In this document: piece by piece, positions 2,054 through 64,000 of the stretch
Layout: each line of letters opens with the position of its first letter
Numbering within the stretch: position 1 is the first letter of the stretch
Source of the DNA: Synechococcales cyanobacterium
GTDB taxonomy: Bacteria; Cyanobacteriota; Cyanobacteriia; CAKZMO01
Assembly (NCBI GenBank): GCA_035285585.1
Contig: JAYKGU010000164.1
Location: forward strand, 55,609 to 119,608
Reading direction: 5' to 3'
DNA length: 64,000 nucleotides
Made by a program: the position numbers and the translations under genes
The notes under the pieces: model-generated
Seen by the model: the letters and a program-made list of their open reading frames with translations, nothing else
What the model was told of the DNA's origin: nothing
Databases searched by the model: none

Positions 2054-3274
2054 CTACTTGATGATCTTAGACACAACGCCTGCGCCGATCGTCCGACCAC
2101 CTTCACGAATTGCGAAGCGCATTCCCTGCTCAATAGCGACGGCGTTGATTAACTCAACCGTCATCTTGATGCGGTCGCCCGGCATCACCATTTCCACGTT
2201 CTCGCCCGCATCAGAGGTGTAAGCTTTGATCGTGCCAGTTACATCCGTTGTTCGGATGAAGAACTGGGGCCGGTATCCTGCGAAGAAGGGTGTATGGCGT
2301 CCACCTTCCTCCTTCTTCAGGACGTACACTTCAGACTCGAATTCGGTGTGAGGCGTAATGGAACCAGGCTTGGCAATTACCATGCCGCGCTCGATGTCTT
2401 CCTTTTTGAAGCCTCGGAGCAGAAGTCCGGCATTATCACCGGCCATCCCTTCGTCCAAGCTCTTCCGGAACATCTCAATCCCGGTCACCGTGGTCTTGCG
2501 GGTATCGCGAAGGCCAACAATCTCGACCTCCTCACCAACTTTCACCTTGCCACGCTCGATCCGTCCAGTGGCCACCGTTCCCCGACCGGTAATAGTGAAG
2601 ACGTCCTCAACCGCCATCAGGAAAGGCTTATCCACATCCCGCTCAGGGGTGGGAATGTATTCGTCAACGGTTTCCATGAGGTCGTAAATCTTTTGAACCC
2701 AAGGATCATCTACCTTACCCGCATCAATGGCCTCAACCGCCATTAGCGCAGAACCGGTGGTGATGGGGATATCGTCTCCCGGAAATTCGTAGTCGCTCAG
2801 CAACTCCCGAACTTCTAGCTCAACCAGCTCGAGCAGTTCTTCGTCATCAACCTGATCTTGCTTGTTCAGGAAAACCACCAGGTTAGGCACGTTTACCTGA
2901 CGGGCCAGGAGGATATGCTCGCGGGTCTGGGGCATGGGGCCATCAGCCGCCGAAACAACGAGGATAGCGCCATCCATCTGAGCTGCGCCCGTGATCATGT
3001 TTTTCACGTAGTCAGCGTGACCGGGGCAATCGACGTGGGCGTAGTGGCGGCTTGCGGTTTCGTATTCTACGTGGGCCGTGTTGATCGTGATCCCACGAGC
3101 CTTCTCCTCAGGAGCGGCATCAATCTCGTCGTACTTACGAGCTTTGATATTCTTGTCCTTGGCAGCCAGTGCCATCGTAATGGCGGCAGTCAAAGTGGTC
3201 TTACCGTGGTCAACGTGACCAATGGTGCCGATGTTAACGTGTGGTTTGTTTCTTTCAAACTTTTCGCGTGCCAT
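2054..3274 (-). CDS. tuf: Elongation factor Tu
   Basis: 406 aa, [33 protein letters not shown]... with full-length EF-Tu G-domain motifs. Confidence 0.97.
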
Positions 3275-3301
3275 GAGTTACGTGTCCTTATCTCTGACTA
3301 A

Positions 3302-5377
3302 TTATGCGTTCCCTTTGTTTTTAGCGATGATTGCCTCCGCAACATTGCGAGGCACCTCATCATAGTTACTGAACTCCATGGAAAAGATGCCTCGACCCTG
3401 CGTTTTAGACCGAATGTCTGTAGCATAGCCAAACATCTCTGCCAATGGCACCTTAGCCGTCACCTTGGCAATACCTTCCTCCGAGCCCATACCCTCAATT
3501 TGACCTCGACGGGAGTTTAAGTCTCCCATCACGTCACCTAAAAACTCCTCAGGAACTTCGACTTCAACCTTCATTGAGGGTTCTAGAAGAACGGGAGCAG
3601 CCTTCATTACGGCAGTCTTAATTGCCATTGAACCAGCAATCTTAAAAGCCATCTCTGAGGAGTCTACCTCATGATATGACCCATCTACCAGGGTCACCTT
3701 CAAGTCAATCACCGGATAGCCTGCCAGGATACCCGATTCGCAGGCTTCCTTCATACCACTTTCCGCAGGGGAAACGTACTCCTTAGGGATAGAACCACCG
3801 ACAATTTTGGAAACGAATTCGAAGCCACTTCCAGGCTCGCCCGGTTCAACTTCAATGACGACGTGTCCATACTGTCCTTTCCCACCGCTCTGGCGGATGA
3901 ACTTGCCCTCGGCATTAGTTGCTTTACGAATCGTTTCGCGATAAGCAACTTGAGGTGCGCCGATATTTGCTTCAACCTTAAATTCCCGCAACATTCGGTC
4001 AACGAGAATTTCCAGGTGAAGCTCCCCCATACCTGCAATCACCGTTTGATTGGTTTCCGAATCGGTGCTCACCCGAAAAGTCGGGTCTTCATCCGATAAC
4101 GACTGCAGCGCTTTTGACAGCTTTTCCATATCCTGCTTTGTCTTCGGCTCGATCGCAACGGAAATTACTGGCTCCGGAACGTAGAGAGATTCGAGGATCA
4201 CGGGGGCGTTCTGGGCACAGAGGGTATCCCCTGTAGTGGTAGTTTTCAGCCCCAATACCGCACCGAGATCTCCTGCCCGCAGCTCATCTACTTCGATGCG
4301 CTCATCTGCCTTCAAGATGATCAGGCGAGAAATTCGCTCTTTGTCACTTTTTGTGGAATTGAGAACGTAACTTCCCTTCTCCAACACCCCTGAGTAAACT
4401 CGGATAAAAGTCAGGCGTCCGTACGGATCAGCCATTACCTTGAAAGCCAGTGCCGAGAAGGGCACATCATCAGATGCAGGGCGCGTTACCTCAGTGCCAT
4501 CAGGTAAAGTACCTTGAATGGCAGGAACCTCCGGTGGGGCAGGCAAATAATCAACAACAGCGTCGAGCAAGAGCTGTACACCCTTATTCTTAAAGGCAGA
4601 ACCGCAAAGCATGGGAACCATTGTGCCCTGGATAGTGGCTTGGCGAATGCCTGAGCGAATCTCTTCAGCGGTTAACTCTTCTCCCTCCAGGTATTTTTCG
4701 GTTAGAGTATCGTTGGTTTCGGCAACCGCTTCTACGAGATTGGCCCGGTACTCCTCGGCTAGTTCGCGCACTTCCTCTGGGATTTCGGTATCTTCCATAT
4801 CGACACCAAGATCATCGTTGTAAATACGCGCGCGCATCCCGACCAAGTCAATCACACCCCTAAAGCCATCTTCTGCACCGATGGGGATTTGAATCGGAAC
4901 AGCGTTGGCCCGGAGGCGATCGCGTATCTGCTCGTAAACTTTAAAGAAGTTCGCGCCTGTGCGATCCATTTTGTTAACGAAGGCAATACGGGGTACCCGA
5001 TACCGGTCGGCCTGTCGCCAGACCGTTTCGGACTGGGGCTGCACCCCGCCAACCGAGCAAAAGACTGCGATAACACCATCCAGCACACGCATAGAGCGCT
5101 CGACCTCGATGGTGAAATCTACGTGACCTGGCGTATCAATAATATTGATGCGGTGATCGTTCCAATTGGTGCTGATTGCAGCAGCAGTAATCGTAATACC
5201 CCGCTCCCGCTCCTGCGCCATCCAATCGGTTACTGCCGTACCCTCATGGACCTCTCCGATTTTGTGAACCACACCGGAATAGAAGAGAATTCGCTCTGTT
5301 GTTGTTGTCTTGCCCGCATCAATGTGTGCAGCAATTCCGATGTTGCGTACCCGTTCAAGCGGGATATTACGAACCAC
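3302..5377 (-). CDS. fusA: Elongation factor G
   Basis: 691 aa, [20 protein letters not shown]... canonical EF-G. Its position between rpsG and tuf matches the str operon. Confidence 0.97.
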
Positions 5378-46375: not shown

Positions 46376-46485
46376 AAAAGGGGAGCGATCGCCTTTCAGA
46401 AAACCGTAGGGTGATCACTGCCGACCACAACCTTTTTGTGGTTCAGCGTGGTTCAGCGAGTCAACGGTGGCCACTGCCCACCCCC

Positions 46486-46733
46486 TGGTTGACTGACAAA
46501 ACTCTTGAAAGCCTGATTCTGCCGTAGTGGTACGACACAGCTAAAATGAGGCATTAGAGAAATTCGAGATGCCCGAATCGCCTAAATTGTGCCAAAAATC
46601 TATTGCACTACTTTAGCTGTGTCGTACCAGTAGGATGGGTTAGCGTCAGCGTAACCCATCGCAACCGTTACCGGTGTTGGGTTTCGCGTTGCTCAACACC
46701 AACCTACATCGGATCTTTTGTCAGTCAATCAGG
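46486..46733. mobile_element. MITE, copy A (family with CTGATTGACTGACAAAAG terminal inverted repeats), flanked by 9-bp target-site duplication GCCCACCCC; carries a nested second MITE
   Basis: Ends CTGGTTGACTGACAAAA ... TTTTGTCAGTCAATCAG. The flanking GCCCACCCC is directly repeated on both sides. The internal sequence is 95% identical, as reverse complement, to 63311-63458 except for a 102-bp insertion. Confidence 0.8.
46528..46629. mobile_element. Nested MITE (18-bp TIR TGGTACGACACAGCTAAA) inserted in MITE copy A with a 4-bp GTAG target duplication
   Basis: Perfect 18-bp inverted termini. The uninterrupted copy at 63311-63458 has a single CTAC/GTAG at the insertion point. Confidence 0.75.
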
Positions 46734-46956
46734 CCCACCCCACTTCATGAATAATCTAGAGTAGCGATATCCTGGAGGCAGTTTCGTTGACAACAATTGA
46801 GCAGGCAGTTATCTGCACCCAACTCGCTCAAGAGATCACCGGAATGTTTGTTCCCATATACCTTGTAAGGCTGGACGAACGCACTGGGAATCTGTTCATG
46901 TTGGCCGGGGACGAAATTGAGATTGAGATTCAGCCCAATGGACTTTGGGAATTTCT

Positions 46957-50400: not shown

Positions 50401-51050
50401 ATGTCCATGCGCCGCTGATGAGCCTGCCCCACATTCTGGGCACCACCCTGGCGACGGTTCCTGCCCCGATTCCCTATCTCTCACCCCCCGCCGCAGACCT
50501 TCCCCTCCCTGAACCGTCCGGGCCGCTTACCGTGGCAACGTCTCCCCCTCTAAAGGTCGGTTTGGTATGGGCAGGCAGCCCCACCCATAAAAATGACGCC
50601 CATCGCTCGTGCCCATTCATGTACATCTGGCGACTGCTGCGATCGCCCGGAATCATTTTCTACAGCCTGCAAAAGGGCGATCGCACCCGCGACCTGGCGG
50701 ACTACTGCGACCACCAGTGGCCGGTGATTGACCTGGGCGATCGCCTCCAGGACTTTGCTGACACGGCAGCGGCGATCGCCCAGCTCGACCTGGTGATTAC
50801 CGTCGATACGGCGGTGGCCCACCTGGCGGGGGCGCTGGGCAAACCCGTGTGGATTCTCCTTTCCCAGCCCTGCGACTGGCGCTGGCTGGGCGCTCGGCCC
50901 GATAGCCCCTGGTACCCGACCGCACGCCTTTTCCGTCAGGCCCGACCGGGGGATTGGGCGGAACTGCTGGGTCGGGTCCGGCAGGCGCTGATAGACGGTA
51001 GGTTGGCGTTGAGCGAAGCGAAACCCAACAGGCATAGCCCATCAATTTAA
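47409..51050 (+). CDS. Tandemly duplicated TPR-repeat / GT9-like (heptosyltransferase-fold) glycosyltransferase protein
   Basis: Two consecutive copies of about 8 TPR motifs, a WRDYEWRWR motif and a GT9-like domain (GLGDTLQFIRFAPL.. / GFGDAIQFSRYVPL.., then KIGIVWAGS.. / KVGLVWAGS.., ending DLVITVDTSVAHLAGALGKPVWILL). The copies are joined by a His/Pro/Thr-rich linker. The start may be the track ORF's 47349. Confidence 0.75.
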   Translation: MEMGSEQLAIARQHYQANRFAIAAQLCQELVQADVSQSAAWLLLGLCLYRQKQFQEAEHCYRTLLTHQPDHVDALSNLGVMLKAQGRLAEAIQVYGRAIALDPQSVAILNNLGNACWQQGQLDTARQHFQQALQLAPDDLEVRQNLGNLLRELGDYGGAIAHYQHLLHHRPQDSAVLNNLGNALQGLRQFPQAVACYQLALRSAPQAAHIWSNLGAALQEQGSGEEAIAAFRRALDLKPTYADAYYNLGNLWRNQDRLAEAIVAYRKAIALRPPFAMAYNNLGLALHDQGDYVGAIAAYSQALALEPDHADAHLNRGLSHLMRGNFQDGWRDYEWRWRVVGPNFKPPRTFSQPQWDGSDLTGQTILLHPEQGLGDTLQFIRFAPLVKAKGGTVLLECPTPLLRLFQSMTGIDHLIPAGQPLPDFQVHAPLMSLPHLLGITLANLPSQVPYLRLAEQLELRGQESEFRSQESESEIQNLKSKIQIQESEFRSQEAESKVQNLKSKIQIQESEFRSQNPKSKIQNPKFRKIGIVWAGSSGHRGDRHRSTTLQYFTRLLELPDIQLYSLQKGEREEDLAELGDRAPRIHNLAPDLQDFADTAAAIAQLDLVITVDTSVAHLAGALGKPVWILLGATPDWRWLSDRPESPWYPTARLFRQPTPGDWNTLFDQVLSTLTHPHPSPHPPTHPPTHPPTNAPTHQRTHQPINASTHQPINPSTLTLAQSAYRQKRYSEAATLYEQALAATTDPAERLDLQTNLGNAYLHQKQFQRAIAQYHTVLAHDPQQGKVRNNLGVALRQLGRHPEAIAHYHFLLQQRPTADAHYNLANALRDEGQLDAAMHHYRQALERQPDYASAWNNLASALKDAGRVDEAIACYRHTLTLVPDHASAHYNLGYVLLFKGDLAAGFAAYEWRWRVANFRAPRCCPQPQWDGADLQGATILLHTEQGFGDAIQFSRYVPLVAQRGGRVIVECRPPLRRLLSTVPGVAQVVSPDEPLPPFDVHAPLMSLPHILGTTLATVPAPIPYLSPPAADLPLPEPSGPLTVATSPPLKVGLVWAGSPTHKNDAHRSCPFMYIWRLLRSPGIIFYSLQKGDRTRDLADYCDHQWPVIDLGDRLQDFADTAAAIAQLDLVITVDTAVAHLAGALGKPVWILLSQPCDWRWLGARPDSPWYPTARLFRQARPGDWAELLGRVRQALIDGRLALSEAKPNRHSPSI
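48786..48992. repeat. STRR-like heptanucleotide repeat (AAAATCC/GAATTCA/GGAGTCA, about 30 units), in frame within the TPR-GT9 CDS
   Basis: Strict 7-nt periodicity over about 207 bp. It translates to a 7-aa periodic linker (ESEFRSQ / IQNLKSK) between the two lobes of the first GT9-like domain. Confidence 0.85.
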
Positions 51051-51090
51051 GCAGGTGTTGGGTTTCACGCTGTTCAACCCAACCTACGAT
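50993..51090. repeat. Palindromic hairpin element related to the MITE core (GTAGGTTGGCGTTGAGCGAAGCGAAACCCAACA ... GTGTTGGGTTTCACGCTGTTCAACCCAACCTAC)
   Basis: About 95-bp imperfect palindrome sharing the core with MITE copy C (57118-57262). It overlaps the last codons and stop of the TPR-GT9 gene and fills the gap to the convergent glmM. Confidence 0.7.
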
Positions 51091-53654: not shown

Positions 53655-54548
53655 TCACAACTTGTTAACCGACAGCCGATAGCTCAGGGTGGAACTGGCG
53701 GCGAATCCCGGTTTCAGCAGGCCGCTGACGGGGCTGGTCTGGTTGGGGAAGAAACTGGCCGTGAGGCCAATGTGGCGATCGCCCACCGCCAGCCCCAGGG
53801 TAGGGTCATAGCCCCGCCAGCCCGCCCCCGGCAGGTAGACTTCGGCCCAGGCATGGAGGTGCTGCTGCGTCACGGAGGAATCGCCCTCGTGGTAGCCGCT
53901 CACGAAGCGGGCCGCCAGCCCCACGGCCCGGCAGGCTTCCATGAACAGAACGGTAAAATCCCGGCAGGACCCCATCTGCTTGCCCCAGGTGAGGGCGGGG
54001 GGCAGGGGGGCACCCGTCTCTCGAATGACGTGGCGGCAGGTGTTGTAGATGCGCTGGTTGAGTTCCGAAAGAAACCCCACGGTGTTGCCTTCGGTGGCGT
54101 GGAGGATTTCCTGGGCCAGCTCTGTCACCACCGGGTCGGTCGCTGGGGTCAGGGTGAGGCAGTGGCGGGAGAGGTAGGGGGAAAGTTGGGTGTAGAGGGT
54201 GGTGGGGTAGTCGATGGGTAGCTGTGCCGCCCATTCTTTCAGCAGAAAGTCGAACGGGTTGACGCGGTGGGTTTTCACTTCGGATAGGGCTTCCACCGTA
54301 AAGTTTGGGGTCTCTGAGTCGTCAAACCGCAGGTGGAGGGCCGAACTGCCGTCTAGCTCCACGGTTTTGCTCTGGGCGATCGCCCCTGGCTTCACCTCTA
54401 GAGAGAAGGCGTGCAGGGACTGGGTGCTGTCGCAGCGGGGGCGCAGGCGGAGGATGTGGGTATCCAGGCCCACCGGGCGATCGTACTGGTAGGAGAGGGC
54501 GTGGCGGATTTGATAGCGCATGGCGTCAGGACACAGGCTGGAGATCAA
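53655..54548 (-). CDS. Transglutaminase-like superfamily protein
   Basis: N-terminal bacterial transglutaminase-N region, then the core QMGSCRDFTVLFMEACRAVGLAARFVSGY (Cys nucleophile) with downstream His and Asp. Overlaps the alpha-E gene by 23 bp. Confidence 0.8.
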   Translation of the reverse strand: MISSLCPDAMRYQIRHALSYQYDRPVGLDTHILRLRPRCDSTQSLHAFSLEVKPGAIAQSKTVELDGSSALHLRFDDSETPNFTVEALSEVKTHRVNPFDFLLKEWAAQLPIDYPTTLYTQLSPYLSRHCLTLTPATDPVVTELAQEILHATEGNTVGFLSELNQRIYNTCRHVIRETGAPLPPALTWGKQMGSCRDFTVLFMEACRAVGLAARFVSGYHEGDSSVTQQHLHAWAEVYLPGAGWRGYDPTLGLAVGDRHIGLTASFFPNQTSPVSGLLKPGFAASSTLSYRLSVNKL

Positions 54549-55476
54549 AGAAGGTTTCGCAAACGGCTGTGCCCACCAGATTGAGCCGCTTTTGGATACT
54601 ATCTAGGAATTCGTGCAGACCGCTCTGCATAATTTCCTCAATTGTGAGGTATTCCAGCTCGGAGCGCAGGCGGCTCAGGGAGCGATCAGCGGCACTCGAC
54701 CAGCGGCCAAATTTGCTGCCGGTAATTTCATAGAGGGACTGCTCGGCCTGGAGCACGCAGAAATGAATGGAGCGGGGAAATTCCCGGTCCAGAATCAGAA
54801 ACCTGGCCACCTCGGCGGGCAGGATGCGGTGCTGGCACTTGCGATACATCTCGTAGGCACTGGCGGACTTGAGCAGGGCGATCCACTGCAATTCGTCCAG
54901 GGTGGTGCCCACATACTTAACCGACGGCAGCAGAATAAAGTACTTCACGTCCAGAATACGGGTGGTTTTGTCCGCCCGCTCCAGCAGGCGACCAATGCGG
55001 CCAAAGTGCCAGCCCTCGTTGTGGGACATGGTGGCGCTGGTCACCCCAGCGAACAGGTGGCTGGCCATTTTCACTTCCGCAAAAAAGCTGGACAGTTGGG
55101 CCAGACTGCTATCCCACGAAGCCTCCTTCACCATGATGTAGAAGGCGTTAATCTGCTCCCACATTTCCGAGGAAATAATTTCCCGCACGGAGCGGGCGTT
55201 TTCCCGCGCCGCCCGCACGCAGGAGAGGATGGAATTGGGGTAGTCCGTATCAAAGGTGAGGAACTGGATGACGTTTTCAGCGGAGGCTTCCCCATAGCGC
55301 TCGGTGAACAGGGCTAAATCCCCGGTGGTCACCACCAGGGGCCGCCACTGCTGCTCGGTGCCGATGGGCAGATCCAGCAGCAGGTTAAGGTTGACGTCGA
55401 TAAAGCGGGCCACGTTTTCCGCCCGCTCCACGTAGCGGTTGAGCCAGTAAATTGAATCGGCCACCCGACTCAGCAT
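54526..55476 (-). CDS. Alpha-E domain protein (DUF403)
   Basis: MLSRVADSIYWLNRYVERAENVARFIDVN is the hallmark N-terminus of alpha-E proteins. It sits in the conserved position between the circularly-permuted ATP-grasp and transglutaminase genes. Confidence 0.85.
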   Translation of the reverse strand: MLSRVADSIYWLNRYVERAENVARFIDVNLNLLLDLPIGTEQQWRPLVVTTGDLALFTERYGEASAENVIQFLTFDTDYPNSILSCVRAARENARSVREIISSEMWEQINAFYIMVKEASWDSSLAQLSSFFAEVKMASHLFAGVTSATMSHNEGWHFGRIGRLLERADKTTRILDVKYFILLPSVKYVGTTLDELQWIALLKSASAYEMYRKCQHRILPAEVARFLILDREFPRSIHFCVLQAEQSLYEITGSKFGRWSSAADRSLSRLRSELEYLTIEEIMQSGLHEFLDSIQKRLNLVGTAVCETFFDLQPVS

Positions 55477-55555
55477 GGGTTTCTCCTTTGGCGATCGCCA
55501 TCGTCATGTTTTAAAAAATGCCTAAATGTCTGAACTATCTGGAGGGGGGCTGGAT

Positions 55556-57013
55556 TTAGGCCACCACCCAGGTATCTTTGCTGCCGCCGCCCTGGGAGGA
55601 ATTGACCACCAGCGATCCCCGCTTCAGGGCGACGCGGGTGAGGCCACCGGGGTTCACGTAAATCTCTTCGCCGTAGAGAATGTAGGGGCGCAGATCGACG
55701 TGGCAGCCCTCGAAGCGATCGCCAATCAGCGTGGGCACCCGCGACAGGCTAAGGGTGGGCTGGGCGATGTAGTTGCGGGGGGTGGCCCGGATGCGCTCGG
55801 CAAAGAGTTCCCGCTCTGCCTGGGTGGCCTGGGTGCCCACCAGCATGCCGTAGCCCCCCGACTCGTTAGCCGACTTCACCACCAGCTTGTCTAAATTGGC
55901 GAGGACGTGCGACTGCTGCTCTGGCTCCCAGCAGAGGTAGGTGGGCACGTTGGGAATGATCTGGTCTTCCCCCAGGTAGTAGCGGATCATGGCGGGCACG
56001 TAGGCGTAGATTACCTTGTCGTCGGCCACCCCGGTGCCCAGGGCGTTGGCGATCGCCACTCGTCCGGCCCGATACACTTCCATCAACCCCGGCACCCCCA
56101 GCAGCGAGTCGGGGCGAAACGCCTGGGGATCAATAAAGTCGTCGTCAATGCGGCGATACACCACGTCCACCCGTTCCAGCCCCTTGGTGGTGCGCATCTT
56201 CAGATAGCCGTCCGCCACCACCAGATCCCGGCCTTCCACCAGCTCAACCCCCATCTGCTGCGCCAGGAAAGAGTGCTCGAAGTAGGCCGAATTGTAGATG
56301 CCGGGGGTGAGCACCACCACGGTGGGGTCGGGCAGGGTAGGGGGAGTCAGGTTCAGCAGCGTCTCCAGCAGCTGGCTGGCGTAATCGTCTACCGCCTGAA
56401 TGCTCATGGAGTTAAAGAGCTGGGGAAAGGTGCTCTTCATCACGCGGCGGTTTTCCAGCACGTAGGACACCCCCGATGGGCAGCGGAGATTGTCTTCCAG
56501 GACGTACCACTGGCCGTCGCGATCGCGCACCAGGTCGGTGCCGGTGATGTGGCACCAGATCTGCTGGGGCGGCACCAGCTCCAGGCAGGGCTTGTGAAAC
56601 CCTGACGCCGAAAAAATCAGCTCTGCCGGAATCACCCTGTCCTGGAGGATTTTTTGTGGGCCGTAAATGTCATTCAAAAACAGGTTGAGAGCATGAATTC
56701 GCTGCTTCAGCCCCTGCTCCAGCCATCTCCATTCGTGGGTAGACACAATGCGAGGCACGATATCGAAGGGCAGAATGCGCTCGGTCCCCTGGTTGTCGCT
56801 GTACACGTTAAACGTGACCCCCACCCGATAGAGGGCATTCTGCGCCGCCTGCTTACGCTGCTGTAAATCTTCTACCGAAAGCGAACTCAGCCGCTCGATT
56901 AACAGCGCTGCCTCTGGCCGGGGCTGACCGGGTGCCTCAAATAGCTCATCGTAAAAGTGCTCTGGGTCGTATTCGTTAAGCTGCACAGGACTCGACTGCC
57001 TACTTCTTCGCAA
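55556..57013 (-). CDS. Circularly permuted type-2 ATP-grasp protein (DUF404/DUF407)
   Basis: 485 aa with blocks characteristic of the permuted ATP-grasp amidoligase family ([43 protein letters not shown]). Confidence 0.85.
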
Positions 57014-57117
57014 TGGGTCTCAATTTGACTAATCATTAGAGGCTGGAGAACCCGCAAGCTGTAAAATTCGCTACAACTTAATTTTCGCTTTAGATTTGCC
57101 CTGGCCAGGGCTGTTGG

Positions 57118-57262
57118 CCTGATTGACTGACAAAAGTTTCAAATGTAGGTTGGCGTTGAGCGAAGCGAAACCCAACACCAGCGAGGGTTATGTTGGGTTT
57201 CGCTAGCGCTCTACCCAACCTACAGCAGAATAAGGGTTTCAAGAATTTTGTCAGTCAATCAG
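57118..57262. mobile_element. MITE, copy C, flanked by 9-bp target-site duplication GCTGTTGGC
   Basis: CTGATTGACTGACAAAAG ... AATTTTGTCAGTCAATCAG termini with GCTGTTGGC directly repeated on both flanks. The internal palindromic core is shared with the 50993-51090 element. Confidence 0.8.
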
Positions 57263-57282
57263 GCTGTTGGCCTTAAGGTTCC

Positions 57283-57375
57283 GGCTTAAAGCGGGACAAA
57301 ACTGACAGAACAGTGAGATATAGCGAGATAATTAGCGCTCCGCCGTCTCACCTCAGCTTGATACCCAATTTCAAA
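57283..57375. repeat. Imperfect direct repeat, copy 1 (GCTTAAAGCGGGACAAAACT...GATACCCAA), paired with 58661-58740
   Basis: Shares GCTTAA(A/G)(G/T)CGGGACAAAA(C/T)T and (T/G)ATACCCAA blocks with the second copy. A third CTTAAGTCGAGACAGTCGGG occurs at about 57663. Confidence 0.4.
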
Positions 57376-57508
57376 GTAAGAAAGCAAAAAAAGCCGACTT
57401 TTGCCGACTTTTTAATACATCTGCTCAGCAGGTTTTCAGGATGCTTAAACGGTATTTGGGGATGGTAATGATATTAGGGATTAGGGAAAGATTGCGAAAT
57501 CGCGATCG

Positions 57509-57540
57509 CCCCGGTTTTCTAACATGAATTTAATTGTGCC
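57509..57540. repeat. Half copy of the palindromic terminator-like element (CCCCGGTTTTCTAACATGAATTTAATTGTGCC)
   Basis: Exact 31-nt reverse-complement match to the left arm and flank of copy 2 (17859-17890). Confidence 0.75.
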
Positions 57541-57789
57541 AACCTATTTATTAATAAGTAGTTAAACAAAATTATTTGCTTGGGTGCGTGCATCCCCGCC
57601 GGGAGCACATACACCCACAAGTTGCAGTTAATTGTGCTCAAGCACCTAGATCAAATAAAAAAGGATATCAACTTAAGTCGAGACAGTCGGGCGCGGCGCA
57701 CCCCACTGTCTCGCTAATTTTATGATTTGCCAAAAATTAAAGCGATCGCCCAGGGGTATCTGGCAAATGGCGATCGCCCAACGTTTGCC

Positions 57790-58047
57790 TTAGCGTAATT
57801 TCAGGCTCTGGCCGCCCTCCCGGTGGGAGACAGCATCTAGCCACTCGCCAACCGCTGCCACAAGGGCTGAGGCGTCATTAAAGTGCCCTCGTTCCACCTG
57901 GGCGATGGCATGGTGCATTAAGTTAACAACAACCTGAACGCTCACATCCTCAGGCTTGGGCCGATCTGTACTTTGAGTAAAACTTAAGCTCATAATCTCA
58001 CCAAAGGAAACGCTATTTTGACAGGGACATAGATCGTCTAGCAGCAC
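57790..58047 (-). CDS. Small hypothetical protein (67-85 aa)
   Basis: ORF in an AT-rich, otherwise ORF-poor segment. Composition looks protein-like from MSLSFTQSTDRPKPEDVSVQVVVNLMHHAIAQVERGHF. No homology recognised. Confidence 0.3.
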   Translation of the reverse strand: MLLDDLCPCQNSVSFGEIMSLSFTQSTDRPKPEDVSVQVVVNLMHHAIAQVERGHFNDASALVAAVGEWLDAVSHREGGQSLKLR

Positions 58048-58660
58048 TTAGCTATAGAAAAAAAACGACGTCGGCTGACTCCTAGTGCTTTGGGAAACTT
58101 CGCATTACCGACTGAAGTTATCATCAGACATAAGGTGGCTAGATGTCTATAAAGTTGGCGTAAAAATAGGGCAAATTAAGTGGAAGTCGCACCTCCCTAA
58201 CGGTAAATCAATGAGGCTAAATTCTTTCGAAAACCCCTAAATTTAGTGTTAGGAACCGCGTCGACAAATTGAACAGGTGGTAGAAAAACCTCGCTGAAAC
58301 TTGGTAGACGTAGCAGACGGTCGCGTTTAGCTGCCCACGTCTACAATCTAAAGATAGAATGTGACTTTCTTGTGAAAACCTGGGGGGCGATCGCCCAATC
58401 TGGCACTGTAATAATCTCGCTTTTTATTTTCTTTTTTTAGATTGTTTTTTGAGCTACCCCTGTACAAAGCAAGAAGCGGGAATGCAGTACGTTCGGTGCG
58501 CCTGGGAGCTTGAAATCTGGGCCTATGGCCGCAGCAATCACGGTAGCAGTCTGCGGGGAAGAAATTTATTCGTAAACATTTTGATTCGGCAGATAAGGAT
58601 AATTTTCCACAATTAGGGATATTAAGAATAAACAACTATGGGCGGAAGTCGCTGGGTTTT

Positions 58661-58740
58661 CGCTTAAGTCGGGACAAAATTAGCGGGAAATTGAGACACT
58701 CAGTGTCCCGCTTTCCCGCCTTAAGTTAATACCCAAAACC
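58661..58740. repeat. Imperfect direct repeat, copy 2 (GCTTAAGTCGGGACAAAATT...AATACCCAA)
   Basis: See 57283-57375. Also contains local dyad symmetry (AGCGGGAAA/TTTCCCGCT, GGGACA/TGTCCC). Confidence 0.4.
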
Positions 58741-58744
58741 TTTA

Positions 58745-59221
58745 TTAGGCGTATTCGTCGAGAAATCTATCCAGAACTTCGTCAGGCTCATCCTCAATCT
58801 CATCCGTTAGCGATGGCTTATTCGGCCTGCTGGCTGGCTCTGCGGCTGACGTTGACGACGATGCGGCAAACGACCATAAAATTTCATCAGGCTCGTCGAA
58901 TTCGTCCTCCTCTACATCTGTCAGCGGTTTGATGGGCGTAGACGCCGCTCGATGAGCCGCCCCCCTTCCCTGGGACGTATCCATCAGGGGAACGGGCAAG
59001 TGGAGGCGATCTACTTTTGCTTCCAGGGCTGTCAAACGGGCCGTGAGGGAGGCGATCGCCTCCTTCTCCCCAGCCGCTGAATAGAGGGCTTCCGCGATGC
59101 GGTCATAGAGCCATTCTGCGCGGGTTTGCCCCAGCCCTGCGCAAAGGGCATCAATGCGGGCTGCCCACCCCTGGGGAATCGATGCGGTAATCAGTTCATG
59201 GTGGGGGGGCAACTGATTCAT
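58745..59221 (-). CDS. Ribbon-helix-helix (CopG/Arc-like) protein with coiled-coil and an acidic C-terminal tail
   Basis: LITASIPQGWAARIDALCAGLGQTRAEWLYDRIAEAL fits the RHH beta-strand plus two helices. It is followed by EKEAIASLTARLTALEAKVDRL and a DEEDEFDEPDE-type acidic tail. It lies immediately downstream of the patatin gene on the same strand. Confidence 0.5.
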   Translation of the reverse strand: MNQLPPHHELITASIPQGWAARIDALCAGLGQTRAEWLYDRIAEALYSAAGEKEAIASLTARLTALEAKVDRLHLPVPLMDTSQGRGAAHRAASTPIKPLTDVEEDEFDEPDEILWSFAASSSTSAAEPASRPNKPSLTDEIEDEPDEVLDRFLDEYA

Positions 59222-59296
59222 TTCTCTGGCTCCAGTTTGATCGTTTTCGATCCTTCTTGCAGGATACAACCATATTGTCCCCTGGGCTGGCTGTTT

Positions 59297-60427
59297 TCAG
59301 GGATGCAGAAACCCGGCGAAGTCAGCCGCATCCACCTGTTCGTGGGCGATCGCCTGCCCAATGCGTCTAAAATTGGCGATCTCCTCGACATTGTCCATGC
59401 GGCTAACAGCGTTAGCGTCAATGTCCCCCAGGGTCGTGTTCCCTAATCTGAGGGACTGCAGGCGTTTCGGGGTCAGGGCAACGGTGTAGCGATGGTAGGT
59501 GAGCAACTGGTTCGTAGCGGTTAGCTCCACGTGGCGCATGGGATTGACCAGGCTTTCAACCGCATCCTTCTCATCGGTTTGCGATCTGGGCTGATAGCTG
59601 ATCAGATTAATGATGGCGTTTTGCTGGAGGTTGGCGTCATCCATCAGGGTGGAGGCGGCATATCGTGCCCAGTCCACCATGTTAAACCGGCCCACCCGTC
59701 CCACTGGTTCGACCGCTGGATTCCCCGATCCAGTACCAACCGAGATGAGCAGTACCTTGTCAGCTCCCGTTTCCCAACCCACGTTATATTCTGGCTTGGT
59801 AGCTTCCAGAAAAAGTTGAAAGGATGGATTGTTGAACATACTCATGCCGCCGTCAATGAACTCATACTTGCCGCTGACGGTCAAAATTGGATGGGGCGGA
59901 AAAAACGTCGGTGCGGCTGAGCTGGCCCGAATCAAGTCCCGCAGTTTGAGCGCCTTGTCGTTTTTGTAGTACCGGCCCTTGGGGTTGTTGACAAAAAACC
60001 AGGTTTCTCCAGTAGTGGCGTTTTTGGCCACAATCAGCAGCAGCGTTTTCAGCTTCTCAGAACCCAGCTCTGTGTCCTGGAATTCTTCCTGGAGCTTGGC
60101 TTCGAGGGCTTGCGGACTGTAGGTAGACCAGAATCGCTGAACCATATTCCAGCGCTTGCGAAAAATACTGGAACCGCTCTCAATATAAAAGTCCCGCACC
60201 TGGCGAGCCGACATGCCTTTGGCCAAGGCTGCCGCAAGAATCGACCCGGTGCTGGTGCCGCCAATGAAATCAAAATAGTCGGCCAGACAGGTCCAGTTGG
60301 GATTGTGCGCCCGCAACAGATCTTCCATGCGAATTAGCACTTCCGCCGCAATAATGCCGCGAATACCGCCACCATCCAGAGATAACAAGCGTTTTGGTCG
60401 GTTGACACCCTGCTTCAGCAAATCCAT
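59297..60427 (-). CDS. Patatin-like phospholipase
   Basis: Oxyanion hole LSLDGGGIRG, the nucleophile elbow GGTSTGS and the catalytic Asp in FIDGGM (DGG). The start is taken at MDLLKQG, because the longer track ORF would overlap tnpB. Confidence 0.85.
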   Translation of the reverse strand: MDLLKQGVNRPKRLLSLDGGGIRGIIAAEVLIRMEDLLRAHNPNWTCLADYFDFIGGTSTGSILAAALAKGMSARQVRDFYIESGSSIFRKRWNMVQRFWSTYSPQALEAKLQEEFQDTELGSEKLKTLLLIVAKNATTGETWFFVNNPKGRYYKNDKALKLRDLIRASSAAPTFFPPHPILTVSGKYEFIDGGMSMFNNPSFQLFLEATKPEYNVGWETGADKVLLISVGTGSGNPAVEPVGRVGRFNMVDWARYAASTLMDDANLQQNAIINLISYQPRSQTDEKDAVESLVNPMRHVELTATNQLLTYHRYTVALTPKRLQSLRLGNTTLGDIDANAVSRMDNVEEIANFRRIGQAIAHEQVDAADFAGFLHP

Positions 60428-60429
60428 CG

Positions 60430-61950
60430 CGTTTCCCTCCCATGTAATACAGCCTGGAATGCATCCGCCCCAGGACAGATTAACTTGACATCCTCTCCCA
60501 GCAACCCTAACGGGTGTGCAGGGAGATTCCCTGGGTCGCCCCAAAGATTTCCTGCTTCAACAGGTGCCAGCTAGACTGAGTGACCCCAGTCCCCGCCGCA
60601 TCCCCTCCACAGGCATTTTCAACCACCCGTTGCCCACGGGCAGATATGACTTGCCCACTAGCCACATCACGGGGCTTAATTGACCCGCAGTTGTGGCAGT
60701 GGTGAATGCGGGTTGAGAGGTCTTTACGCGCCTCCGCCCCACAATCTGGACACTCTTGAGAAGTGCCCCGTGCATCAACCTTGCCGTAATGCACATCCCG
60801 CTTCCAGCACACCCACGGCAGAACCTGGTTCACAAATTGGCCCAATCCAGCATCAAGGGTATGCTTGCCCAACATCCCTTTGGCCATGATGCGGAAGTCC
60901 AAATCTTCCACAAACACCATCCCAGCGCCATCACAGAGATGATGAGCTAATTTGAAATGCCAGTCTTTGCGGGTATCGGCAATGCGTTGATAAACTCTCG
61001 CAATCTTCTTCTGGAGTTTTAGCCAGTTAGCAGACCCCTTCTGCTTATTCTTCAATCTGCGTTGCAGCAATTTCAGCTTGCGGTGTAGTTCGTTGAAAAA
61101 GCGGGGACGCTTGACCTGTTCTCCATCAGAAGTTGAGAGAAAGTATTCCAGTCCGACATCAATCCCGACTGGGTGCCCATGAGGAGCCACAGCGGGGATA
61201 TCAACATCGGCCTGAAGGCTAAGCATGACGAAGTACCCGGATGCTTTACGCACAATCCGGGCTTGTTTCGCCTGGAATATTTCAGGTATTTCCCGCGACC
61301 AGCGCACCTTGACCAACCCCAATTGAGGCAACTTGATGCCCTCGGCAGACACGCAATTTTTGAGCATCTGGGGAAAGACGAAGCTACGCATCCGGTTCGG
61401 TTTCTTGAACCGGGGGAATCCTGAACGCTTCAACCGCCACGACTCCCAAGCTGCTTCCAGGTTTCGGATTACCTGTTGAAGCACCTGAGCATTGACGGTC
61501 TTTAACCGGGTGAATTCAGTCTTTGCCGCAGTCAGCGACTTGCACTGACGCGCATAGCTGGGGAATGGCGCATCTGCTGGCAAGATAAACTCTTGCCGAA
61601 TTGAACACGCATTCACTGGAGACTTGCGAGAATCTAGCCAGTCCTTGCGTTCCCGCAGGGCAAAGTTCCAGACATTGCGGCACACGTCCAGAATGTTCTC
61701 AATCTCCGAAACCTGCTCAGCGGTTGGCTCTAACTTGAATTCCCACGTCATGTTTAGCATCAAACCATTATAGCCTAAGAAGCAGATATTCATTTCTTAG
61801 GTTCGGCCAATTTACTCCCTCCGGTCGTGCGTCGCTTCACCACCCCCCAAGCCTTCGGCTATGGGCGGAGCACTGCGACGAATCTTGGTAGATTTCTCTT
61901 CAGGATGGCACAGGATCTTTCGGGTCGCTAGTCTCTGATGAGCATCCTGC
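60430..61950 (-). mobile_element. IS200/IS605-family insertion element carrying only tnpB (no tnpA)
   Basis: A single TnpB ORF lies between the stop of the nitronate monooxygenase gene and the start of the patatin gene. Boundaries are approximate and were not defined by hairpins. Confidence 0.5.
60507..61751 (-). CDS. tnpB: RNA-guided endonuclease TnpB (IS605 OrfB family transposase accessory protein)
   Basis: N-terminus MTWEFKLEPTAEQ (YRLYPT-like). Central RuvC-I block GIDVGLEYFLSTSDGE. C-terminal zinc finger CPDCGAEARKDLSTRIHHCHNCG and RuvC-III. Confidence 0.85.
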   Translation of the reverse strand: MTWEFKLEPTAEQVSEIENILDVCRNVWNFALRERKDWLDSRKSPVNACSIRQEFILPADAPFPSYARQCKSLTAAKTEFTRLKTVNAQVLQQVIRNLEAAWESWRLKRSGFPRFKKPNRMRSFVFPQMLKNCVSAEGIKLPQLGLVKVRWSREIPEIFQAKQARIVRKASGYFVMLSLQADVDIPAVAPHGHPVGIDVGLEYFLSTSDGEQVKRPRFFNELHRKLKLLQRRLKNKQKGSANWLKLQKKIARVYQRIADTRKDWHFKLAHHLCDGAGMVFVEDLDFRIMAKGMLGKHTLDAGLGQFVNQVLPWVCWKRDVHYGKVDARGTSQECPDCGAEARKDLSTRIHHCHNCGSIKPRDVASGQVISARGQRVVENACGGDAAGTGVTQSSWHLLKQEIFGATQGISLHTR

Positions 61951-61956
61951 TGGATT

Positions 61957-63042
61957 TCAGGAATCAGCAACAAGTTCAGCCATCAGGTCAGCTACAGACA
62001 CGATCTCAGTTGCTCGACCGGCATGACTGCCTGCAAAAATTAAGCCATTCTCCACATCTCCAGACGCCGCCCGGTCGAGGGCTTGAAGGATGCAAAATTC
62101 TTCCCTGGCATCTCGACAGCGACACACTCGCAAACAGTTGGCAATGCAGCGTTTATCCAATGTCTCTGGTTGATGCAGCACCTGTTCCGCGAACGCATTG
62201 CGGAGCGCTCGGCCTGGTAAACCGACTGGACTGGGAAGCACCACAACATCATCGGGGCTGGCATGTAGATGAAATTTTTTGTACCGAATGTCGGCATCAC
62301 ATTCGTGGGTGGTAATGAAGCGGGTGCCCATTTGAACGCCACTCGCTCCCAGTGCTAGCATCTGGTCAATATCCTGGCGATCCCAAATCCCTCCAGCCGC
62401 AATCACCGGAATCATCGCCCCTAGCTCGTCTCGCAGGTAGTTGATTAACTCGGGAATCACCCTTGCCAAATCCAGCGCTGGATTGCCTAACTCTTCTGAC
62501 CTGGCTCCCAGATGACCGCCCGCAGCATTGGGCGTTTCGACCACAAATGCATCGGGTAGGCGGTGGTAGTGGCGCTGCCAACTACGGCAAATTAGCCTGG
62601 CCGCACGCACCGTAGAAACAATGGGTACCAGAGCCACATTTGGGTTAGATTGCGTGTACTCTGGCAAATTTAACGGTAACCCTGCGCCGCCAATAATTAG
62701 ATTGGCTCCATACTCGACAGCGGTGCGGATCAAAGTTTCGTGATCGCGGGCTGCCATCATACAGTTGATACCCATCACCCCGTCAGGGCTTAACGCACGG
62801 GCAAGCTGCAGCTCATCAATGAGGGCCAGCCGATTGGCAGCGAAAAGATTGCCTTTCTTTTTTTCTGCATCAAAGTAGGGGGAGCGAAACCCTAGCCCCA
62901 CCGCTGAAATAATGCCGATGCCTCCAGCGTTAGCAACGGCTGCAGCCAGGTTTGCACCGGAGATGCGAATGCCCATGCCCCCCTGAATAATGGGATAACG
63001 GGCAACGTGTTGTCCAATCTTGAGAAGTGGTAATGATGACAT
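61957..63042 (-). CDS. Nitronate monooxygenase / 2-nitropropane dioxygenase family FMN enzyme (FabK-like)
   Basis: ARYPIIQGGMGIRISGANLAAAVANAGGIGII TIM-barrel FMN-binding N-terminus and an internal VIAAGGIWD. Start taken at MSSLPLLK. Confidence 0.8.
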   Translation of the reverse strand: MSSLPLLKIGQHVARYPIIQGGMGIRISGANLAAAVANAGGIGIISAVGLGFRSPYFDAEKKKGNLFAANRLALIDELQLARALSPDGVMGINCMMAARDHETLIRTAVEYGANLIIGGAGLPLNLPEYTQSNPNVALVPIVSTVRAARLICRSWQRHYHRLPDAFVVETPNAAGGHLGARSEELGNPALDLARVIPELINYLRDELGAMIPVIAAGGIWDRQDIDQMLALGASGVQMGTRFITTHECDADIRYKKFHLHASPDDVVVLPSPVGLPGRALRNAFAEQVLHQPETLDKRCIANCLRVCRCRDAREEFCILQALDRAASGDVENGLIFAGSHAGRATEIVSVADLMAELVADS

Positions 63043-63310
63043 TTTGACCGCACTTACTATTGGATTGTCCGTCGCCGGGGGGCACTCGGAGACGGAAAAC
63101 GGACATGGAGCAGGCATCAGACTTCCCGGAGGCAATCTGTGGTATGGTTTCGGCCCCATTCAGCGACCATCCTTCGGAGGTGGCGTGGCGACGAATCCCC
63201 TTACCTTTAGGCCGAGAATGGTGTCAAGAAACGGCGGTAGGCAACTTTACCACCGTCGAATATTATATAACCATATAACTTTCAAGAAATCAAGAGATGT
63301 AGAACCGGTG

Positions 63311-63458
63311 GTCGTTTGGCTGATTGACTGACAAAAGATCCGATGTAGGTTGGTGTTGAGCAACGCGAAACCCAACACCGGTAACAGTTGCGATGGGTTA
63401 CGCTGACGCTAACCCATCCTACGGCAGAATCAAGCTTTCAAGAATTTTGTCAGTCAGT
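63311..63458. mobile_element. MITE, copy D (uninterrupted, inverted relative to copy A)
   Basis: CTGATTGACTGACAAAAG...AATTTTGTCAGTCAGTCGAG. About 95% identical to the reverse complement of copy A minus its nested insertion. Confidence 0.8.
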
Positions 63459-63551
63459 CGAGAATTCAGTAGTATATTTATACTGGACATTGGGCCAGGG
63501 AGTAGAGCAAAATGGGGCAATGAACGCTGCATAAGGTGGCCTGGAGGTTTG

Positions 63552-64000
63552 ATGCCTGCCCAATGGACAACTGAGCAAGTTTTGGCCCTTGCCCCCGATG
63601 CGGCGTCTGCCAAAAGCGGGCGGGGTCTGGCAATCCGGCAGAAATGGGTTTCCCTGGGCCGCCAGCAAGCCGTCGTTTGGGGCGAGTGCCAGGGGAGCGG
63701 CAAAACTCCCTACCGCACCCAGATTGACCTGACGGAGCCAGCGTTTCGCTGTAGCTGCCCCAGCCGCAAGTTTCCCTGTAAACACAGCCTGGGGCTGTTT
63801 CTGCTGCTGGCGGAGCAGCCAGGGGAACTGAGTGAGGCTGAGCCGCCGGATTGGGTGGCCGAATGGTTGGCCAGCCGATCGCAGCGGGCCGAAAAGCAGG
63901 CTGAAAAGCAAGCGAAACGCCAGTCGCAGTCCGCCGATCCTGTCGCCCAGGAAAAGCGGGCAGCCGCACGGCAGCGCAAGGTGACGGTAGGCATGGAAGA
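63552..64000 (+). CDS. SWIM zinc-finger domain protein, N-terminal part; the 3' end lies beyond the window end
   Basis: ATG at 63552. FRCSCPSRKFPCKHSLGLFLLL is a canonical SWIM CxC...CxH motif. The ORF is open to the end of the window. Confidence 0.7.
   Translation, partial: MPAQWTTEQVLALAPDAASAKSGRGLAIRQKWVSLGRQQAVVWGECQGSGKTPYRTQIDLTEPAFRCSCPSRKFPCKHSLGLFLLLAEQPGELSEAEPPDWVAEWLASRSQRAEKQAEKQAKRQSQSADPVAQEKRAAARQRKVTVGME

Follow-up and report, generated by a model that had tools for sequence, protein, structure and literature searches.

IS608 and ISDra2 are the described systems with which the element analyzed here can be compared most directly. In IS608, cleavage takes place 3′ of TTAC, and the right end finishes in TCAA, 10 nt from the foot of a hairpin (PMC3201880). 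It is also established that the guide of TnpB sits outside the right end of the element (PMC10278001). In the 64-kb window considered here, by which we mean the whole stretch of DNA that was analyzed, a preliminary description had placed a solo tnpB element of the IS605 family between a nitronate monooxygenase (NMO) family gene and a patatin-like lipase gene, the latter followed by a gene for a small RHH protein. All of these genes were present in the described arrangement, and all are on the minus strand. The NMO family gene upstream of the insertion spans 61957-63159 (Pfam NMO, 1e-54; longest ORF, whose true start may be internal). We consider it very likely that the locus as a whole represents an ordinary IS insertion upstream of a stand-alone lipase gene, with the lipase and RHH-like genes being unrelated bystanders.

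The limits of the element were defined by comparing the window with 79 related cyanobacterial loci using blastn. In nearly all full-length copies, DNA homology had sharp edges at 61891/61892 and at 60485. The sequences flanking 60485-61891 were unrelated among the 79 loci. The window therefore holds one copy of a complete tnpB-only IS200/IS605-family element of ~1.4 kb (60485-61891, minus strand). It has neither terminal inverted repeats nor a target duplication, the flanks (...gaagagaaat and gttaatctg...) sharing no repeat. Near the left end lies a subterminal imperfect palindrome, CGTCGC...GCGACG, with an inner GCC-GAAG-GGC hairpin (61830-61880, minus strand; DNA fold of 61761-61900, z = -2.6), whose sequence is conserved among loci; the hairpin near the right end (60525-60495) shows compensatory changes across relatives. 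Every copy ends in ...GAG followed by AGGATGTCAA, giving a TCAA terminus 10 nt past the foot of the right-end hairpin. At the left boundary, CTAYC was near-universal in the 79 loci and the base preceding it varied between copies. This conservation, together with the analogy to IS608, points to CTAC (CTAY in relatives; 61888-61891, minus strand) as the candidate transposon-adjacent motif (TAM) and left cleavage site. These first 4 nt may thus belong to the target rather than to the element, the left boundary being either 61891 or 61887. Assuming CTAC to be the TAM, one would expect the empty site to have the sequence ...GAAGAGAAAT-CTAC-GTTAATCTG...; an empty site was found neither in an all-against-all junction search among the fetched loci nor in metagenome pattern scans for a Thermostichus locus (L044) and for the window's own site. 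Related stretches numbered 408 in one-genome-per-species contigs, and Baaleninema simplex PCC 7105 alone contributed about 20 of the 79 loci. The element is a tnpA-less, non-autonomous, IS1341-type member of the IS200/IS605 family, very common in cyanobacteria.

The tnpB coding sequence (60507-61760, minus strand; 417 aa) was delineated from ORF calls, Pfam, NCBIfam and an alignment to ISDra2 TnpB. The longest ORF spans 60507-61793, and the likely start is MLNMTWEF at 61760. The protein matched OrfB_IS605, Cas12f1-like TNB and HTH_OrfB_IS605 (Pfam PF01385, PF07282 and PF12323) as well as the NCBIfam model guided_TnpB (249.8 bits against a cut-off of 100). When aligned to the catalytic residues of ISDra2 TnpB (8exa), to which its identity is ~30% as estimated by eye from the printed alignment rather than computed, it retained the RuvC residues D201, E285 and D365 and the CxxC...CxxC zinc finger (C337, C340, C355 and C358), so that both motifs are intact, as had been reported. 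Identity at the protein level reached 91% across genera. A TATAAT box is situated 6 nt upstream of the tnpB ATG (61767-61772, minus strand), and in most of 23 comparable relatives a TAnnnT box occurs at the same distance from ATGCTAAACATGACGTGGGA, with variable middle bases. This box is probably the -10 element of the tnpB promoter, which would give rise to a leaderless or near-leaderless mRNA. Using an Acaryochloris TnpA as the tblastn query, we detected no tnpA in the window, in the element or in the 79 loci, and the window copy is for this reason non-autonomous. In a relative located on an Acaryochloris plasmid, a divergent Y1 tnpA lies between the left end and tnpB. The family models, the ends and the lack of tnpA all agree with the initial view of this locus as a solo tnpB element of the IS605 family.

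The preliminary description had also predicted an omega-RNA spanning the 3′ end of tnpB together with the IS right end, at about 60400-60620, overlapping the promoter or 5′ end of the patatin gene, and had proposed a covariance search for it. Covariation and the covariance model both supported such an RNA, at coordinates that differ from those predicted: a scaffold of 160 nt with five helices, encoded on the tnpB strand at 60644-60485, followed by a guide extending to ~60465. Of the cells representing the 48 proposed pairs, 93% were paired, compared to at most 52.5% when the pairing was slid; compensatory changes occurred in 29 of the 48 pairs, and none of 500 shuffles did as well. The many G-U pairs are found on the tnpB-sense strand, and the fold had a z of -4.1. 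A covariance model for which 33 relatives served as input, with the window left out, matched 60485-60644 over its full length (177.5 bits, E = 3e-42) and had no other match in the window. A long-range pair suggested by RNAalifold (alignment columns 58-62 with 264-268) displayed no double changes and was not used. The last ~44 codons of tnpB overlap the scaffold, whose terminal hairpin (60525-60495) holds the tnpB stop codon (60509-60507) in its loop and is followed by 10 nt ending in TCAA at the IS boundary. Rfam 15 contained no family matching 56000-64000 at E ≤ 1, so that only its position, its structure and analogy place the RNA among the omega-RNAs; on that basis, we assign the structured RNA as the omega-RNA scaffold of TnpB. 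A by-product of these analyses is that, for a very abundant TnpB family of cyanobacteria that escapes detection by Rfam 15, the exact ends, the structure of the omega-RNA and a usable covariance model are now available.

Downstream of the scaffold, the flanks after ...GATGTCAA differed in every locus (56 distinct sites), and this variability suggests that the first ~16-20 nt past the right end (60465-60484, minus strand), with which the patatin leader also begins, would act as the guide. The 20-mer at 60484-60465 is unique in the window. We propose that TnpA supplied in trans inserted the element into a spacer of ~120 nt between the NMO family gene and the patatin-like phospholipase gene. Transcription of tnpB would start from the conserved -10 box in the left end, and the transcript would pass through the tnpB 3′ end, which doubles as omega-RNA scaffold, and on into the flank that provides the guide. 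Following excision, the complex of TnpB and omega-RNA would cut the empty allele, consisting of the TAM and the guide-matching flank, with the result that the element would be restored by recombination. Read-through into the lipase gene would then be a by-product rather than an evolved regulatory device. Given that the guide is encoded in the patatin leader and that domesticated TnpB repressors are known (PMC10705468), TnpB could alternatively be a TldR-like RNA-guided regulator aimed at the patatin leader or promoter. We regard this as highly improbable: the RuvC triad is intact, as are both transposon ends, and the family occurs in multiple copies whose flanks are unrelated from site to site, a pattern characteristic of an active IS and not of a fixed guide. 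Furthermore, the guide match in the occupied site adjoins the right end (..GTCAA) rather than the candidate TAM, and we found no orthologous loci in several species having the same guide beside patatin genes.

The relationship between the insertion and the lipase gene depends on where the latter begins. Its start is the ATG at 60427 and not the TTG at 60544, which makes the 376-aa product identical to the deposited protein P0001, and with this start the gene does not overlap tnpB. As for the overlap originally predicted between omega-RNA and lipase gene, the predicted guide falls within the patatin leader, and the gene itself lies beyond the IS end (60485). The closeness of that end to the patatin start was well founded: the 57-nt spacer (60428-60484, minus strand) connects two co-oriented units, and a consensus scan of this interval, from right end to ATG, revealed nothing resembling a promoter or terminator. 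It includes a GGAGGG sequence (60440-60435) at a distance of 7 nt from the ATG. With a co-oriented IS that stops 57 nt short of the lipase gene and no terminator in between, some read-through into that gene is plausible, indeed likely.

Such read-through could have consequences for the lipase. Transcription from the IS promoter might drive or modulate patatin expression, or TnpB binding and processing of a joint transcript might change how stable the lipase mRNA is or how it is translated. The shared strand, the 57-nt gap without a terminator-like hairpin, the strong GGAGGG ribosome-binding site and the conserved tnpB -10 box are all compatible with this idea, as is the fact that the insertion splits the spacer between the NMO and patatin genes, so that 1.4 kb now separates the lipase gene from any native promoter that lay upstream of 60485. 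However, a promoter without a -35 element may exist inside the 57-nt spacer, and the arrangement is known from one genome. In addition, across the 56 distinct insertion sites the next large ORF was co-oriented at 30 and opposite at 19 (binomial p = 0.15, with a crude ORF heuristic), giving no sign of selection for the co-oriented arrangement. Overall, an effect of the insertion on the lipase seems unlikely. Less likely still, to the point of being rather improbable, is the stronger version in which the IS has in effect taken over upstream control of the lipase gene, the tnpB/omega-RNA transcript running into patatin and the first 20 nt of the leader acting as TnpB guide too. Were this true, TnpB binding or processing of the joint RNA would couple lipase expression to transposon activity. 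The reading that we prefer, an ordinary insertion beside a bystander gene, would make this a routine IS event carrying little weight for biology at large.

The lipase gene (59297-60427, minus strand; 376 aa; Pfam 1.2e-24) encodes the motifs GGGIRG, GTS59TG and D192GG, and its Ser-Asp catalytic dyad (S59 and D192) is intact, as noted at the outset. Its best sequence match in the PDB was CapV (9.4e-26), a cGAMP-activated CBASS phospholipase with which it has in common the patatin fold and the GGGxRG, GxSxG and DGG motifs. Unlike CapV, it has about 60 extra C-terminal residues, reached 168.2 bits with NCBIfam CBASS_lipase against a curated equivalog cut-off of 200, and lacks an adjacent CD-NTase, at this locus as well as in the five contexts of its homologues. 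It has more than 2,700 homologues and is part of a large family, found in cyanobacteria and Terriglobales, whose members are of a stand-alone type. In all five contexts examined (49-53% identity), the homologue stood alone in housekeeping surroundings, and these contexts were syntenic within Phormidium/Baaleninema and within Terriglobales. By sequence, then, the lipase is CapV-like yet of a stand-alone type, and a CapV-like patatin of this housekeeping-context family should not be called a CBASS remnant.

The gene for the 158-aa protein (58745-59221, minus strand) encodes a probable N-terminal RHH domain, a coiled coil, a disordered linker and two acidic motifs (DEFDEPDEILWSF and EDEPDEVLDRFL). 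The coiled coil of the preliminary description, which had also mentioned an acidic tail, was recovered; the RHH assignment is putative and draws its support from distant relatives, since the protein's own match to Pfam RHH_1 is not significant (E = 0.15) and 9 of 36 relatives match that model (best, 4.6e-6). An AF2 model of low confidence (pLDDT 59) placed two helices at 19-30 and 34-48, and a Foldseek search of the PDB with this model returned nothing at E ≤ 0.001. On the basis of these relatives, the protein probably carries an RHH DNA-binding domain. Like CopG/RHH_1 regulators, it is predicted to begin with a short N-terminal segment that leads into two helices; it differs from them in the addition of a coiled coil and of the EDEPDEILYDFL acidic motif, present in one to three copies, features that to our knowledge have not been described for RHH antitoxins. 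This may point to an undescribed family of small proteins.

The patatin and RHH-like genes lie 75 nt apart on the same strand, and they had been suggested to form a toxin-antitoxin or defence-effector module, for example an orphan CBASS effector with its regulator. The closest solved structure being that of CapV, the matches of the patatin to PADLOC phospholipase effector models (2e-58) and the probable DNA-binding domain of the small protein would all fit such a module. The CBASS_lipase score, however, falls below the curated cut-off, and we found no CD-NTase cyclase, sensor or other defence gene in the neighbourhood, as the preliminary description had itself observed of cyclase and sensor genes; the surrounding genes are of housekeeping type (ATP-grasp, Alpha-E, transglutaminase, phosphoglucomutase and TPR). 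In terms of co-occurrence, the pairing was seen in none of the five patatin contexts and in none of the five readable small-protein contexts: the sole close relative of the 158-aa protein is encoded after a GntR gene, within a betaine-catabolism-like cluster, and a patatin neighbour is likewise missing from four relatives that are more distant. The gene pair is not conserved, and the contexts largely refute the module idea, which is not supported and to which we attach very little probability. The region next to these genes is AT-rich and bordered by repeats, as stated previously, with 43-51% GC at 57000-58700 compared to 55-64% around it and MITE-like repeats at 57113-57264 and 63314-63459, 6.2 kb apart. 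A role for these two repeats as brackets of a composite element was rejected because further copies occur at 46476-46738 and 50998-51087.

Compared with known TnpB omega-RNAs, the RNA predicted here is alike in being encoded on the tnpB strand and overlapping the tnpB 3′ end, in having a scaffold that stops exactly at the right end and is succeeded by a site-specific flank, and in its multi-helix structure with strong covariation. It is distinguished by the ~160-nt length of its scaffold, by a terminal loop that contains the stop codon and by the lack of a match to any Rfam 15 model. The element as a whole resembles IS608 and ISDra2 in its TnpB with RuvC and zinc finger and in the subterminal imperfect palindromes at both ends without inverted terminal repeats, and its right end, like that of IS608, finishes with a TCAA located 10 nt past the foot of the hairpin. 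As left motif it has CTAY, where IS608 has TTAC and ISDra2 has TTGAT. Two further features set the element apart from both: tnpA is absent from the window copy and from the 79 related loci, and the tnpB ORF reaches within 22 nt of the element end.

We scanned the TnpB protein against one genome per species, which gave 408 related stretches, and kept 79 loci with TnpB protein identities of 61-92%. All carried a cyanobacterial label apart from two MAGs of "uncultured bacterium" and a single contig assigned to Sphingobacterium thalpophilum (L029, CALRTB020000033.1); this contig, in which the same cyanobacterial IS is present with 87% protein identity, is probably mis-binned and not a case of cross-phylum transfer. 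When window positions 60100-62200 were compared with the 79 loci by blastn, alignments started at 61891/61892 and stopped at 60485 in nearly all full-length copies, and the DNA outside these boundaries was unrelated among copies. The right end of every copy reads ...GAGGATGTCAA, and conservation at the left end, which carries an imperfect palindrome, opens with CTAYC after a variable base; this conserved CTAY, analogous to TTAC in IS608, probably represents the target/TAM. These sharp, shared limits of homology define an element of about 1.4 kb (60485-61891, minus strand) with tnpB as its sole gene. A tblastn search with a Y1 TnpA detected no tnpA, either in the window or among the 79 loci, in agreement with the preliminary description of a solo tnpB element of the IS605 family. 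In a less closely related element carried by an Acaryochloris marina plasmid, a divergent IS200/IS605 tnpA separates tnpB from a left end that resembles the one in the window. This links the family to IS200/IS605 and identifies the window copy as a derivative of the IS1341 type that is non-autonomous. Neither the fetched loci nor two pattern scans of metagenomes yielded an empty site. One genome, that of Baaleninema simplex PCC 7105, supplies about 20 of the 79 loci, a copy number that indicates recent transposition bursts. Tandem copies occur in this genome (e.g., 605-1989 and 2394-3777 of locus L058), and some copies in its loci L058, L011, L048, and L049 are split by insertions of 60-470 bp or have IS fragments beside them.

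TnpB is well matched by family models, and alignment to ISDra2 TnpB confirmed that the RuvC residues D201, E285, and D365 and the CxxC...CxxC zinc finger, already described as intact, are all kept. The gene occupies 60507-61760 (longest ORF to 61793, minus strand). In most relatives the conserved ATGCTAAACATGACGTGGGA tnpB start is preceded, at a distance of 6-7 nt, by a TAnnnT box with variable middle positions; in the window this box is a -10-like TATAAT (61772-61767, minus strand), at the same position in loci L008-L064. Its placement suggests that the box is the tnpB promoter and that the mRNA may be leaderless or near-leaderless. A covarying stem lies beside or around the box, formed by CTAAGAAA...TTTCTTAG in one subgroup and by TCTACA...TGTAGA in another.

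An omega-RNA had been proposed across the tnpB 3′ end and the IS right end, and covariation supports it. RNAalifold proposed 40 pairs for the last 240 nt of 35 aligned element copies, and 17 of these showed compensatory changes; addition of the terminal hairpin by inspection gave a 48-pair structure. In this structure both partners change in 29 pairs and 93.0% of the cells are paired, compared with 34.6-52.5% when the 3′ partners were slid by 1-3 columns; none of 500 shuffles was as good as the observed values. Several positions stay G-U on the tnpB-sense strand (one pair, for example, in 34 of the 35 sequences), a pattern that fits an RNA transcribed from the minus strand and not an antisense RNA or a DNA hairpin. 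We built a covariance model on 33 relatives, with the window sequence left out; it matched 60485-60644 (minus strand) at full length (177.5 bits, E = 3e-42) and had no second match in the 64 kb; the single-sequence fold had z = -4.1, and Rfam 15 contained no model matching the scaffold. Since the tnpB stop codon lies within the loop of the last hairpin, the last ~44 tnpB codons double as scaffold. The predicted guide would extend from 60484 to ~60465, a 20-mer occurring once in the window, and self-targeting at the occupied site would not be expected because there the guide match is preceded on its 5′ side by the right end and not by the candidate TAM.

Four co-oriented genes lie here on the minus strand, namely an NMO-family gene (ORF 61957-63159), tnpB, the patatin-like phospholipase gene (59297-60427), and a gene encoding a 158-aa protein (58745-59221). 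The longest lipase ORF begins at TTG 60544, a start that we rejected as the deposited 376-aa protein begins at ATG 60427, with GGAGGG 7 nt upstream. The lipase gene and tnpB therefore do not overlap. On the same strand, 57 nt separate the IS right end from this downstream ATG, and a consensus scan found no terminator-like or sigma-70-like site between the two; from this arrangement, read-through of tnpB or omega-RNA transcription into the lipase gene would be plausible. The insertion also moved the upstream part of the old NMO-patatin spacer (~120 nt) 1.4 kb away from the lipase. At 56 distinct insertion sites of the IS family the downstream ORF, by a crude largest-ORF call, was co-oriented in 30, opposite in 19, and absent in 7 (p = 0.15). 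A co-oriented gene start near the right end is thus common and not significantly favored.

The surrounding DNA contains HIP1 palindromes (GCGATCGC) and a dispersed MITE-like element of ~150 nt, bounded by 19-nt terminal inverted repeats (GCCTGATTGACTGACAAAA) and containing an internal hairpin (46476-46738, 50998-51087, 57113-57264, and 63314-63459). Two copies 6.2 kb apart flank the segment from the NMO-family gene to the 158-aa gene together with an AT-rich 1.7-kb stretch (57000-58700, 43-51% GC), a bracketing that looks coincidental because further copies occur elsewhere in the window. The sole sizeable ORF of the AT-rich stretch (85 aa, 57790-58047, minus strand) had no Pfam or NCBIfam match. 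The stop codon of the gene for the 158-aa protein is immediately followed by a long imperfect inverted repeat (58655-58740, minus strand; ggttttgggtattaacttaaggcggga...tcccgacttaagcgaaaaccc), part of which resembles 57277-57318 (71% identity) and which may act as a terminator or represent a further small repeat element. On its downstream side, the AT-rich stretch is closely followed by a conserved cluster of circularly permuted ATP-grasp type 2, Alpha-E, and transglutaminase-like genes (53655-57013, minus strand).

The lipase has the GGGxRG, GTS59TG, and D192GG motifs. Its best solved-structure matches are cGAMP-activated CapV proteins (9.4e-26), followed fairly closely by plant patatin, and PADLOC phospholipase effector models match it (2e-58), although it scored 168 bits against the cut-off of 200 for the NCBIfam CBASS_lipase equivalog. 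The family is large (>2,700 matches at E ≤ 0.001 among 8,000 candidates scored), with 45-53% identity among the best 120 matches and named homologues in cyanobacteria and Terriglobales/Acidobacteriia. Its neighbors in the window are housekeeping genes. We read five homologue contexts, and none had a cyclase or RHH-like neighbor: Phormidium yuhuli and Baaleninema simplex share the order ABC ATPase, patatin, glycosyltransferase and bilin-reductase, to which Baaleninema adds a 232-aa gene after patatin; two contigs from a group whose named members are Terriglobales have a methionine-synthase-like gene, patatin, and a 477-501-aa protein of no assigned function; and the fifth has DUF3326 after patatin.

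For the 158-aa protein, a word-indexed search found a single relative (48% identity) in an Elainellaceae MAG, whose gene, within a Rieske/BCCT/DAO cluster, overlaps a GntR gene at the end of the latter, and an exhaustive profile search gave 43 cluster representatives at E ≤ 0.001. Family members (relatives P0122-P0163) are mostly 120-215 aa and share an N-terminal I-x-C-x-IP..W...IDAL....GQTRSEWL segment, followed by a heptad-like helix, a linker that is variable and of low complexity, and an acidic motif, EDEPDEILYDFLEP, which is highly conserved and present in one to three copies. In some members the sequence finishes with D-x-[DE]-R-P-F, reminiscent of the SSB C-terminal tail. Support for the assignment as an RHH protein comes from relatives: Pfam RHH_1 was matched by 9 of 36 members (best 4.6e-6), but not significantly by the window protein itself (E = 0.15), whose weak AF2 model (pLDDT 59) had no structural match. 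This is apparently a small, uncharacterized family with an RHH-like N-terminus, a coiled coil, a disordered linker, and the acidic motif. Its gene contexts vary, and patatin was absent from the Elainellaceae context and from three others (a 1.1-kb contig with one neighbor was left out of the count). In the contexts read, the patatin and small-protein genes are thus each found without the other, and the arrangement suggested as a module is not a conserved pair.

Together, these results confirm a well-delimited, ordinary tnpB/omega-RNA insertion sequence adjoining unrelated genes, the biological interest of which may be limited to a possible effect of IS-exiting transcription on the lipase gene. 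Its right end finishes with TCAA exactly 10 nt past the foot of the terminal hairpin, matching the geometry reported for IS608 (PMC3201880).
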